A stretch of DNA of 64,000 bases from assembly GCF_003334405.1 (NCBI RefSeq), contig NZ_QOWM01000003.1; one strand, written 5' to 3'. Position 1 is the first letter of the stretch, and the number at the start of each line of letters is the position of its first letter. Source of the DNA: Escherichia coli (GTDB taxonomy: Bacteria > Pseudomonadota > Gammaproteobacteria > Enterobacterales > Enterobacteriaceae). Positions 61,591 to 64,000 of the stretch are shown piece after piece. Under the pieces are notes generated by a model. It had not been told where the DNA came from, searched no databases, and saw nothing but the letters and a program-made list of their open reading frames with translations. The translations under genes and the position numbers were made by a program.

Positions 61591-61647
61591 TACCAATAAC
61601 GGCGAGTAAGTAGTACGCATCTTACCTCTTTTTTAGAGATAACCATT

Positions 61648-61740
61648 ATGACAATAGAAAAACACGAAAGAAGCACTAAGGATTTGGTGAAAGCAGCAGT
61701 ATCGGGATGGCTGGGCACTGCGCTTGAATTTATGGATTTC
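61648..61740 (+). pseudogene. ydfJ: 5' fragment of MFS transporter gene ydfJ, truncated at a prophage insertion junction
   Basis: ATG at 61648 encodes MTIEKHERSTKDLVKAAVSGWLGTALEFMDF, which I recall as the YdfJ N-terminus; the frame then diverges into KSHAC-stop and the integrase gene ends 20 nt further on. Confidence 0.6.
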
Positions 61741-61777
61741 AAGAGTCATGCGTGTTAACTATTTGATAAATATTAAA

Positions 61778-63058
61778 TTAATTTTTCATTGCTTCGTTAT
61801 GGGGCATGGTTGGGGCAAACTCGCTTAACTGTGTATTTAACAAAGCTACCTGTGCATTATTGTTTTCAGACATCCATTTTCCGTATACCTGAAATACCAT
61901 TTGCGCATCTGCATGGCCCATCTGGTTTGCTATAAATGCCGGGTTAGCACCAGCTGTCAGCGACCAGCAGGCATAAGTATGTCTCGACTGATATGATTTT
62001 CGATGGCGGAGTCCGGCACGTTTTATCGCTGCGTCCCACATCTGCCTTATTGAGTCAACGGTAAAATGGTCACCATAATTTTTTACTCTCGCTGACACTT
62101 CAGGTTGAAAAACAAAGGTGCATTTTTGTTTTTCTGTTCTGCCATACTCTCTGAGGTGAACATCAATGATATGCTCTTTGCTCAGTCTCGTTAATGTCAT
62201 CTGACTCCGGAGAGCGTCGATTGCTGGCTTAATAAGATGAATGACCCGATTGGTTCCCGCCTGTGTTTTTGGTACCGTGAAACGGTCTTTTGCTAAATTT
62301 CTCCTGATCATCATTGTTCCATTTTTCAGATCTATGTCCTCCCATCCAAGTGCACACAGCTCACCAGGGCGAACTCCAGTATAAACAGAAACACACCATA
62401 AATTTTTTGCTTGCTGATTTCTGCACGCATCGATAAGACGGATAAATTCTTCCCGCGAAAGAGGATCCGGAATGGTTCTTGATTCCTTTAATGGCGAGAT
62501 CCCCTTAAACGGATTATCTGCCAGGTAACCGTTATCAACACCAAACTGGAACACGGCGTTAAGATTTGTCATGTAATTATTTACAGTTACAGCCGATCTC
62601 CCTGGTTGTGTAACAATATAGTTACTTTTGGGGATCTGGTATCCAGTCAGTAACTCTTTACGAACCTCCAGTAATTTTTCTTTATTAATCGATGAGGCAA
62701 GATTTTTTTCACCGATTATGCTCAGGATATTTTTGATGACGGCACGGTATGTGTTGAGTGATGTTTTGGCGACTTCAGTTTCTTTCAGTGCCAGAAATTT
62801 TTCAGCCAGTTCTTTTATGGTTAAATCTTGTCGGGCCTCACCAAATTTTTCCAGATTGCGTGAGGAGGGAAACTGTTTTGCATAGTCGAAAACACCAGTT
62901 TTTATTGCGTAACAAACAGAGGAGCGTAGTTCACCTGCAACGCGCCTGTTTTTTGCTGTGTCAGGAACCCCCAGATTTTCCCTGACTCTTACGTCTTTAT
63001 AAACAAACCAGATACGTAATTTCCCTCCATGGTTTTCCACGCCTGTCGGATATTTCAT
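61778..63058 (-). CDS. Prophage tyrosine integrase (IntR/IntQ-like)
   Basis: Probable start MKYPTGVENHGGKLRIWF... (complement of cat at 63056-63058; track start 63073 adds 5 aa with no Shine-Dalgarno). C-terminal catalytic region ...RHRKSYQSRHTYACWSLTAGANPAFIANQMGHADAQMVFQVYGKWM carries the R/H-x-x-R/Y signature. Confidence 0.88.
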   Translation of the reverse strand: MKYPTGVENHGGKLRIWFVYKDVRVRENLGVPDTAKNRRVAGELRSSVCYAIKTGVFDYAKQFPSSRNLEKFGEARQDLTIKELAEKFLALKETEVAKTSLNTYRAVIKNILSIIGEKNLASSINKEKLLEVRKELLTGYQIPKSNYIVTQPGRSAVTVNNYMTNLNAVFQFGVDNGYLADNPFKGISPLKESRTIPDPLSREEFIRLIDACRNQQAKNLWCVSVYTGVRPGELCALGWEDIDLKNGTMMIRRNLAKDRFTVPKTQAGTNRVIHLIKPAIDALRSQMTLTRLSKEHIIDVHLREYGRTEKQKCTFVFQPEVSARVKNYGDHFTVDSIRQMWDAAIKRAGLRHRKSYQSRHTYACWSLTAGANPAFIANQMGHADAQMVFQVYGKWMSENNNAQVALLNTQLSEFAPTMPHNEAMKN

Positions 63059-63092
63059 TTCAACTTCTCTCATTAGTTAGTGTGGCTTTTAG

Positions 63093-63344
63093 TCAAGTAA
63101 GATGACGTCTTGGTCTCGCTGATGCCTGGCGCTCAATCCAGCGATCAATTTCTTCCAGGTTGTAAAAGCATGGACTGTTATCCCATGGCATACCGTCATG
63201 AGCGACATGCTTATATTCCCTTCCTTCCATAAACGATTTTTCCCGGGCCTTTTTTAACGTACCTTTTTTTATTCCTTTCAGCGCAATTAACTGCTCTTCG
63301 GATACCCATTTGCCGGGAGAGACAATCATGATTACTTCGCTCAT
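63093..63344 (-). CDS. Putative excisionase / small DNA-binding protein
   Basis: 83-aa ORF directly upstream of int in the same orientation (lambdoid xis position); basic C-terminus. Function inferred from position only. Confidence 0.55.
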   Translation of the reverse strand: MSEVIMIVSPGKWVSEEQLIALKGIKKGTLKKAREKSFMEGREYKHVAHDGMPWDNSPCFYNLEEIDRWIERQASARPRRHLT

Positions 63345-63416
63345 CGATTTCTTTATCTCTTACATCAGACGAGCGCCGGTTGCAGAATACCAGTCACAAC
63401 CGGCGACAGTTGAACA

Positions 63417-63959
63417 TTAAGAATCAGCCTGACTCGGGATCAGTTTTTGCCAGATAACTGAAACGTATTTTGCCTGGTAACGGGCGTCATCAAGTGCATT
63501 ATGGCGCTCACCTTCGAATGGAATAGCCGTTCTGGCATCGAAGTCTATGGCTTTCCCCAGCTCAACGATTGTGCGTACATCGCGATCGTTGTAGTAACGC
63601 CACGGGCAGGGGATCCCCTGCCGTTCGTATGAACGGCGCAAAATCGTGTTGTCGAAGTTGGCTCCATTTCCCCAAACCTGAACAAAAAATTCACCGGAGT
63701 TTTCGTCGATAAATTCTCGCAATTGTAACAGTGCATCATCTAACGGGATTTCATCGGTCATAATGGCAGATTGCGCTTCGCGTGATTGCTTAAGCCACCA
63801 TTTAATGGTGTCCCGATCAATGACTCCGCCAGCAGTTTCCAGATCGATAGTCTTACTAAATTCCGGTCCCATATCTCCGGTTTGCGGATCGAAAAATATT
63901 GCACCTATTGAGATGATCGGGGCATCAGGATTTTTTCCCATGGTTTCAAGGTCGATCAT
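63417..63959 (-). CDS. Prophage DEDDh-type 3'-5' exonuclease (DnaQ-like fold)
   Basis: 180-aa ORF with Exo I (MIDLETMG, D-x-E), Exo II (VWGNGANFDNTIL) and Exo III (HNALDDARYQAKY, H-x4-D) motifs. Confidence 0.75.
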   Translation of the reverse strand: MIDLETMGKNPDAPIISIGAIFFDPQTGDMGPEFSKTIDLETAGGVIDRDTIKWWLKQSREAQSAIMTDEIPLDDALLQLREFIDENSGEFFVQVWGNGANFDNTILRRSYERQGIPCPWRYYNDRDVRTIVELGKAIDFDARTAIPFEGERHNALDDARYQAKYVSVIWQKLIPSQADS

Positions 63960-64000
63960 TAGATGGTCACACGTCCTGCTGGTGGATGTGATTTCGTGAT

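Follow-up and report, generated by a model that had tools for sequence, protein, structure and literature searches.

The question raised by this locus is whether the prophage DNA that interrupts ydfJ at the end of the sequence belongs to a new element with a functional integrase or to the Qin prophage known from the same site in Escherichia coli K-12. The window, i.e. the complete 64,000-nucleotide stretch of E. coli DNA analysed here, contains the prophage from 61741 to 64000 (P' arm, int, xis and the 3' end of an exonuclease gene), and the element runs on past the window end. With a probability of roughly 0.9, these bases are the int-proximal (attL) end of a Qin-family lambdoid prophage of the 'PPydfJ' type inserted in ydfJ, the remainder of which is most probably a 19–27 kb defective remnant that carries the usual Qin genes and has kept an int/xis module of the working type.

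The left flank consists of the host gene rspB (60571–61590, plus strand; it bears this name in the annotation of relatives with 100% identity over this part) followed by codons 1–31 of ydfJ (61648–61740, plus strand), the B arm of attL. The initial annotation placed the insertion in ydfJ, beside rspB, at the K-12 Qin locus, and proposed a comparison of the 31-codon fragment with YdfJ; the product read from the ATG at 61648, MTIEKHERSTKDLVKAAVSGWLGTALEFMDF, is identical to residues 1–31 of the intact 455-aa YdfJ of strain Z1323CEC0013. In that strain, the site is empty, and its sequence is 100% identical to the window between 60023 and 61740 and diverges from 61741. The host/prophage breakpoint, 61740/61741, lies in the 9-bp core ATGGATTTC (61732–61740). 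Across it, the 31 ydfJ codons are joined to five phage codons in a chimeric 36-codon ORF (61648–61758, plus strand), which equals the K-12 'ynfP' (b4534, 111 nt), annotated at the equivalent position, with intQ' and rspB on its two sides; the attL sequence of the window is the same as that of K-12. An Rfam scan of 58000–64000 gave no match. The suggestion that the prophage is the only accessory DNA in the window stood, relative to K-12, for the parts compared, 1–46486 and 57486–62937, which are collinear.

Of 5426 complete E. coli genomes, 2209 (~41%) carry the junction, and an undamaged int end is the common state in the species. When attB was rebuilt from the left flank of the window and the right flank of a relative, it was uninterrupted at 100% identity in many genomes, and the empty site, counted where at least 80% of attB was found in one place, was present in 2010 of 5426 (37%). 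Occupied and empty ydfJ sites are both found on near-identical backbones. In the literature, 48% of strains are reported to have Qin, which ranges in size from 11 to 97 kb (PMC6379469).

Between positions 61400 and 62937, the window and K-12 Qin differ by one mismatch in 1538 nt (99.94% identity), and the K-12 homology ends at an IS2E remnant that matches window position 62937. In K-12, this remnant removes the first 40 int codons, the portion that encodes the arm-binding domain of Int, along with the entire xis gene and, from the exonuclease gene, the 3' part, whereas in the window all of these are undamaged. K-12 Qin (Kim; intQ', ydfE', ynfP, ydfJ') shares with the window the locus, the att core and the ynfP chimeric ORF, and its own attL and attR are intact. 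The element is of the same lineage as Qin and not of a different one. The initial annotation was right that K-12 carries at this locus a Qin prophage with a disrupted integrase, intQ losing its first 40 codons at the IS2 remnant; the flank is not identical to K-12 Qin with respect to that disruption, int and xis being intact in the window.

All 2260 prophage bases (61741–64000) are 100.0% identical to positions 1028–3287 of phage PhiR42_1 (PV340562.1, 48.7 kb, host given as ECOR13), with Int 100% identical at the amino acid level and Xis identical as well. PhiR42_1 has the full Qin gene order together with lambda-like head and tail genes. Its record crosses attP unbroken, and this attP consists of the P' side of the window attL and the P side of the attR of relatives; PhiR42_1 is a free phage genome with attP, whereas the window holds the integrated attL form. 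Because this prophage DNA is 100% identical to PhiR42_1, whose record has the matching attP, the int/xis/attL set is, as far as base identity indicates, of the working type, and the earlier guess that the integrase/excisionase pair may still work is strengthened by identity to a phage with a recombined attP. A literature search under the name 'PhiR42' gave no relevant match; the primary paper on the PhiR phages is reportedly that of Brenes & Laub 2025. The PhiR phages are described as a panel of temperate phages assayed by plaquing (PMC13190303). To go by this description and by the host that the PhiR42_1 record gives, PhiR42_1 itself would be expected to form plaques.

To define the att sites, we compared attL (window), attR (relative L001), attP (PhiR42_1) and attB (genome L006). 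The core ATGGATTTC is common to all four, with flanks swapped as integration predicts: in the window, the core has attB-type sequence on its left and attP-type sequence on its right. The region of att identity in attL is TGAATTT-ATGGATTTC-AAG (61725–61743), and, on these alignments, strand exchange must take place within the 9-bp core. The att repeat, being short and having a 1-nt indel, was missed when L001 was searched for direct repeats in general; direct alignment of the junctions revealed the att sites. In the P' arm, a candidate IHF-consensus site, TATCAAATAGTTA (61756–61768, minus strand), proposed by analogy to lambda H', lies between the core and two candidate arm-type Int-binding sites, TGGGGCA at 61800 and 61811 (61800–61817, plus strand), which are spaced 11 bp apart within the 3' end of int. 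The consensus WATCAANNNNTTR has two matches in the whole 48.7-kb PhiR42_1 genome, one of them 16 bp from the core; TGGGRCA occurs at seven sites in this genome, four of which form two tandem pairs flanking the attP core. These patterns are the basis on which the arm-type, IHF and core-binding sites are predicted.

The integrase gene (61778–63058, minus strand) encodes a 426-aa tyrosine recombinase of the lambda type with an arm-binding domain; the ORF has no stops or frameshifts, and an in-frame ATG upstream at 63073 gives a 431-aa alternative. The protein matches Pfam Phage_integrase (PF00589, E 8.4e-18, residues 201–392) and Arm-DNA-bind_2 (PF12167, E 8.5e-22, residues 4–67) as well as the PHROG 1 integrase family (2.8e-75). 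In NCBIfam, only sub-threshold Xer/integron matches were obtained for Int, while Xis, the exonuclease and the ydfJ fragment had no match; when solved structures were searched by sequence at E<=0.001, no lambda Int chain was recovered. Alignment with Tn1549 Int structures over residues 151–399, combined with comparison to IntR, located the catalytic residues R230, K264, R359, H382 and Y392, all of which are present, with Y356 at the position of the first His. That a Tyr in place of the first catalytic His marks a dead enzyme was considered and rejected, given that Rac IntR and the identical integrase of PhiR42_1 carry Tyr as well; on this comparison, Y356 is a trait of the subfamily and no lesion. 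The exact Int protein occurs on at least 1000 contigs. The description of a full-length, uninterrupted tyrosine integrase thus holds, and the proposed alignment to IntQ and IntR identifies IntQ as the same lineage minus 40 N-terminal codons and IntR as a relative with 43% identity.

The excisionase gene (63093–63344, minus strand; 83 aa) lies 34 nt upstream of int. Its product matches the PHROG 539 excisionase family (1.4e-35) and the Pfam putative excisionase family DUF1233 (1.9e-31), in line with the excisionase-like ORF noted in the initial annotation, and in identical relatives corresponds to RefSeq WP_000005552.1, 'excisionase family protein'. Next to xis, an exonuclease gene had been noted; its identity was upheld by a Pfam Rv2179c-like 3'-5' exoribonuclease domain (1.5e-68) and by PHROG exonuclease families, but not its completeness, the window having only the 3' end (63417–64000, minus strand), ~194 of 823 codons, cut at the window end. 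This early-region gene is the full-length form of K-12 ydfE and measures 2472 nt in both L001 and PhiR42_1.

For the part of this copy past 64000, attR, size and gene content are predicted from relatives. Five genomes are the best matches to 39001–64000; the best match to 1–25000 is a different strain, Z1323CEC0013, with the empty site. No genome of the collection emerged as a match to the window over its full length. On all five of the backbones that best match the last 25 kb, the element is a defective remnant of 21.8–26.9 kb with the standard Qin gene set, with Int and Xis proteins identical to those of the window and an intact attR. These five lack morphogenesis genes and do not have the complete set of immunity, replication and lysis modules, and the immunity/pL region has been replaced by IS elements, with loss of dicA/dicC. 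More broadly, the Qin gene set (dicA/B/F, relBE, hokD, csp genes, lysis cassette, pinQ), with attR at ydfJ codon 29, was found, with variations, in 8/8 relatives examined, attR being exact in 7/7 relatives examined; the closest relatives share with K-12 Qin the genes relBE, hokD, cspB/F/I, gnsB, nohA, tfaQ, pinQ and the lysis genes. Since the five closest backbones carry the standard set, the cargo that had been supposed to lie just beyond the window is expected to be the known Qin cargo. In these five relatives, excision would give no viable phage, and expression of int/xis in the closest remnants is uncertain. The prediction of a remnant is probabilistic because strain G1/2, whose junction is identical, has a near-complete prophage of 48.7 kb with a full set of head and tail genes, the immunity, replication, lysis and morphogenesis modules being largely present.

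The G1/2 prophage, together with the complete identity of the 2260 prophage bases to PhiR42_1, favours a complete, inducible PhiR42_1-like prophage of ~48 kb, in which case the window would include the left end of a temperate phage that is still live. A full-length 'exonuclease', as opposed to the truncated form, is also annotated in 13 of the 30 listed identical-junction records; however, the 18.7-kb remnant of strain 26561 still has the full-length gene as well. Damage is seen even in G1/2, where one tail gene is frameshifted and lom contains an IS, and the 5/5 best backbones over the last 25 kb hold 22–27 kb remnants; a live phage therefore appears unlikely for this window. That YdfJ match and int ORF are products of chance or of assembly, with no true insertion, is scarcely credible: nothing in favour of this was found, and we rejected it on the population counts of occupied and empty sites and on a breakpoint exact at the shared core.

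A different reading accepts the remnant but holds that int and xis are intact through recent decay alone, the element being effectively fixed like K-12 Qin, with int/xis unexpressed after loss of the pL/immunity region or with a damaged attR. Excision of K-12 Qin was not detected (PMC3105296), dicA/dicC and the early promoter region were lost to IS elements in the closest remnants, and a single difference in about 3.3 kb from a viable phage is too little to show selection for or against function. Yet the truncated intQ and the missing xis of K-12, both of which are intact here, account for the absence of excision in that strain; the exact attR of the relatives and the co-occurrence of occupied and empty sites on near-identical backbones also speak against fixation, so that we regard it as possible but doubtful. 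The opposite proposal is that selection keeps int, xis, attL and attR in the 19–27 kb remnants. In these widespread remnants, the head and tail genes are all gone, often together with the repressor region, while int, xis, attL and attR are base-perfect. The remnant might then be a host-controlled reversible switch, which on excision would reconstitute the transporter gene ydfJ in the manner of 'active lysogeny', or a satellite-like element that related superinfecting phages would excise and package; we consider either version highly improbable.

For the preferred reading, a Qin-family remnant with a working-type module, the following course of recombination can be proposed. The element would integrate by site-specific recombination into codons 27–33 of ydfJ, an MFS-transporter gene. 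On both arms, the N-terminal domain of Int would bind the TGGGRCA sites, which form tandem pairs with an 11-bp spacing, and its central and catalytic domains would bind the core sites around ATGGATTTC; IHF, at its site 16 bp away from the core, would bend the P' arm, and Y392 would carry out strand exchange inside the core. In the reverse reaction, Xis together with Int would recombine attL with attR and restore ydfJ. The attR of this copy is expected to read ...CACCTGTGAATT-ATGGATTTC-CAGTTATATTCG, followed by ydfJ from codon 32.

The state of this element is an ordinary, already known one, very common and described; the region should be annotated as the attL side of a Qin-family (PPydfJ) prophage that has kept int and xis intact, not as a new element, and the import of the locus beyond correct annotation is small. 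It is the crippled intQ of K-12 that is the exception; ~41% of complete E. coli genomes have the intact module, and an isolated temperate phage carries an identical one. Therefore, Qin may be excisable in many natural strains, which bears on work that treats dicB, dicF, relBE, pinQ and the csp genes as fixed chromosomal genes. PhiR42_1 provides a full-length reference; by comparison with it, K-12 Qin can be interpreted as a series of deletions.

Similar modules are found in other phages. In mEp460_ev081, HannyBb and Tritos, the int-xis-exo module is 98.7–99.6% identical at the DNA level and Int 99.1–99.5% identical, whereas outside the module these are different phage genomes. The PPydfJ prophages of EHEC (O26:H11 strain 11368, O157:H7) are lambda-like and reside in ydfJ, as does the element in the window. 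According to Nakamura et al. (2021, PMC8112680), the attP of the ydfJ prophage was determined from the excised form by PCR, with an att of 18 or 19 bp; in length, this agrees with TGAATT(T)ATGGATTTCMAG derived here. Unlike the element in the window, the EHEC PPydfJ prophages are described as having type III effector genes and forming tandem prophage clusters (PMC8112680). Lambda likewise has a heterobivalent tyrosine integrase with an N-terminal arm-binding domain and the same gene order, att-int-xis-exo, and the P' arm predicted here has the lambda layout of core, IHF site and tandem arm-type sites. However, lambda attB lies in gal-bio rather than ydfJ, and, compared to lambda Int, the integrase in the window belongs to another arm-domain family (Arm-DNA-bind_2) and has Tyr for the first catalytic His. 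Closer in this respect is the Rac IntR/XisR system of K-12, whose integrase is of the same subfamily (the 43% identity of IntR extends over the full length) and has the same catalytic signature including the Tyr, although Rac integrates in ttcA, not in ydfJ.

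When the window is compared with strain Z1323CEC0013 (L006), the best match to its first 25 kb, in which an intact 455-aa ydfJ directly follows rspB, the two sequences are 100% identical over 60023-61740 and diverge exactly at 61741. In the window, rspA and rspB lie near the end on the plus strand, and 57 non-coding bases separate the end of rspB (61590) from an ATG at 61648, where a 31-codon ydfJ 5' fragment (MTIEKHERSTKDLVKAAVSGWLGTALEFMDF) begins on the same strand. All 31 residues equal residues 1-31 of YdfJ from Z1323CEC0013, and the insertion in ydfJ next to rspB proposed in the initial annotation is thus borne out, with the break at 61740/61741. 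The empty site was rebuilt by joining the left flank of the window to the 3' part of ydfJ from a relative, and it is uninterrupted and 100% identical in many strains. Among 5426 complete E. coli genomes, 2010 contain at least 80% of it at a single place, and the occupied stretch 61400-64000 (rspB-int-xis-exo) is covered to at least 80% in 2209. Given the exact break and these counts, the junction is genuine and precise, and it is very common. In Z1323CEC0013 (L006 1626-2993), ydfJ is intact and empty, and matches the window without a difference as far as the attachment core. Because this strain is also the best match to positions 1-25000, local backbones that are nearly identical can have the site either occupied or empty, which suggests that the element was gained or lost recently, or that recombination took place.

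The insertion creates a chimeric plus-strand ORF of 36 codons (61648-61758), 31 from ydfJ and 5 from the phage, which corresponds to K-12 ynfP ('protein YnfP'). It keeps the promoter and start region of ydfJ and ends in …MDF-KSHAC*, with the stop after the five phage-derived codons. Met29 is encoded by the ATG of the core, at which the ydfJ 3' part starts; K-12 annotation gives this part as a 427-aa YdfJ (PMC6379469).

The integrase described initially as apparently full-length is an uninterrupted minus-strand ORF at 61778-63058, 426 aa long with the RefSeq ATG as its start (431 aa from an alternative in-frame ATG at 63073). It contains Arm-DNA-bind_2 (E = 8.5e-22) and Phage_integrase (E = 8.4e-18) domains, matches PHROG 1, aligns with Tn1549 Int structures, and has R230, K264, R359, H382 and the nucleophile Y392. 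Residue 356 is Tyr where the R-K-H-R-H-Y signature has its first His; since IntR of the Rac prophage, 43% identical overall, has the same Tyr (Y-x-x-R-H-T), this is a subfamily trait and not a defect. The excisionase-like ORF (63093-63344, minus strand, 83 aa) likewise stands, with matches to PHROG 539 (E = 1.4e-35) and Pfam DUF1233 (E = 1.9e-31). The exonuclease gene is present in part: the minus-strand ORF that ends at 63417 and runs off the window encodes the Rv2179c-like 3'-5' exonuclease domain at the C-terminus of an 823-aa early protein, of which only about 194 codons lie inside the window. No Rfam family matched in the region.

The attachment sites read GCGCTTGAATTT-ATGGATTTC-AAGAGTCATGCG for attL in the window, CACCTGTGAATT-ATGGATTTC-CAGTTATATTCG for attR in strain 26561 and six others, CACCTGTGAATT-ATGGATTTC-AAGAGTCATGCG for attP in Escherichia phage PhiR42_1 (PV340562.1; L005), and GCGCTTGAATTT-ATGGATTTC-CAGTTATATTCG for attB in the empty site. 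The flanks are exchanged among the four sites exactly as integration predicts, which places strand exchange within the common core ATGGATTTC (61732-61740). When one indel and one mismatch are allowed, similarity around the core covers 18 nt of attP and 19 nt of attB, in agreement with the att sequence of 18 or 19 bp reported for ydfJ prophages (PMC8112680). The motif TGGGRCA occurs seven times in the whole 48.7-kb PhiR42_1 genome, and four of the seven share one orientation and are grouped in tandem pairs, the members 11 bp apart, with one pair some 130 bp left of the core and the other some 70 bp right of it. The right-hand pair, which falls within the 3' end of int at 61800 and 61811, are putative arm sites, and a match to the IHF consensus at 61756-61768, 16 bp from the core and one of only two in PhiR42_1, is a putative IHF site. 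The order core, IHF site, tandem arm sites would be that of the lambda P' arm, and from these motifs we infer a lambda-like architecture. Separately, a 21-mer in the 3' part of int, ACCTGTGCATTATTGTTTTCA (61848-61868; L005 1135-1155), lies 127 bp from the attP core region ACCTGTGAATTATGGATTTCA, has the same orientation and agrees with it in 18 of 21 positions; this could be due to chance (a few percent by rough estimate), or the 21-mer could be a relic or a secondary site resembling the core.

Qin in ydfJ is already known from the literature (PMC6379469, PMC8112680): it is present in about half of E. coli genomes, at sizes of 11-97 kb (PMC6379469), and ydfJ is a hotspot for prophages, for which an attP has been defined by experiment (PMC8112680). 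The element is Qin itself, and in the state in which it is commonly found; the initial observation is confirmed and its interpretation supported. Multiple mutations in intQ' have been reported for most Qin copies (PMC6379469). This seems overstated in view of the 2209 genomes that have the module, although that count is of genomes covering at least 80% of the stretch, whatever the state of int. With the exact 426-aa Int protein on at least 1000 contigs, intact int seems to be common.

The five best-scoring genomes over window 39001-64000 (FJ_Ec_21, NCTC9100, H3, NCTC9087 and HSP425) carry elements of 21.8, 23.0, 23.0, 24.2 and 26.9 kb with identical Int and Xis proteins and an exact attR. IS600/IS30 interrupts the exonuclease gene of these elements after 1608 nt. 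Head and tail genes are absent from them; relBE, hokD, rem, Q, the csp genes, the lysis cassette, gnsB, nohA, tfaQ and pinQ are kept. Strain 26561 has an 18.7-kb form with the full exonuclease gene, dicB and dicA, and strain G1/2 a 48.7-kb near-complete form. The window is compatible with each of these forms; the element in the window's genome is probably a defective remnant, with a probability of roughly 0.7-0.8. About 1.6-8 kb in from xis, the five closest relatives have a cluster of IS600, IS30, IS2 and ISNCY fragments in place of the exonuclease 5' part and the whole dicB-dicF-dicA-dicC immunity region, leaving Qin remnants with int and xis and without DicB and DicF; HSP425 has two IS1414 copies in addition.

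All 2260 prophage bases of the window equal PhiR42_1 positions 1028-3287 (100.0% DNA identity); its Int is 100% identical, and those of HannyBb, mEp460_ev081 and Tritos are 99.1-99.5% identical. PhiR42_1 belongs to a set of temperate phages tested by plaque assay (PMC13190303); its record crosses attP without a break and holds the complete Qin gene order: int, xis, exo, ydfD, ydfC, ydfB, a dicA-like cI, a dicC-like cro, flxA, relBE, hokD, rem, ydfU, Q, cspF, cspB, the lysis genes, cspI, gnsB, nohA, a full lambda-like head and tail set, and stf, tfa, pinQ and ydfK. The first ~781 bases of its record recur at the end (L005 3-783 vs. 47888-48668, 3 mismatches), probably an assembly overlap of a circular or concatemeric molecule that was left untrimmed, in which case the true genome is about 47.9 kb. 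Qin of K-12 and the remnants of other strains align as blocks on PhiR42_1 at 98-99.9% identity, and PhiR42_1 is, in effect, full-length Qin. K-12 Qin aligns in five main blocks (PhiR42_1 positions 1013-2224, 4409-7896, 12696-24216, 45353-45939 and 46109-48668; 98.1-99.9% identity) and can thus be read as the outcome of deletions of roughly 2.2, 4.8 and 21 kb, together with an IS2 remnant.

K-12 and the window are collinear and 99.8-99.96% identical over the parts compared (1-46486 and 57486-62937). In a repeat-bearing stretch of rsxC (about 5487-5911), two BLAST alignments overlap and the offset shifts by 96; the two sequences differ there by 96 bp in length, apparently because an in-frame repeat varies in copy number. 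A single mismatch separates them over the 1538 nt of 61400-62937, after which K-12 homology ends at an IS2E remnant. K-12 Qin is therefore without int codons 1-40, which encode most of the arm-binding domain, and without xis and the exonuclease 3' part, its ydfE' being a 5' fragment of the exonuclease gene; the disrupted K-12 integrase described in the initial annotation is thereby verified. This loss fits the published finding that K-12 Qin excision is undetectable, as intQ is inactive (PMC3105296). The window, free of the IS2E disruption, holds an element of the K-12 Qin lineage with this end undamaged.
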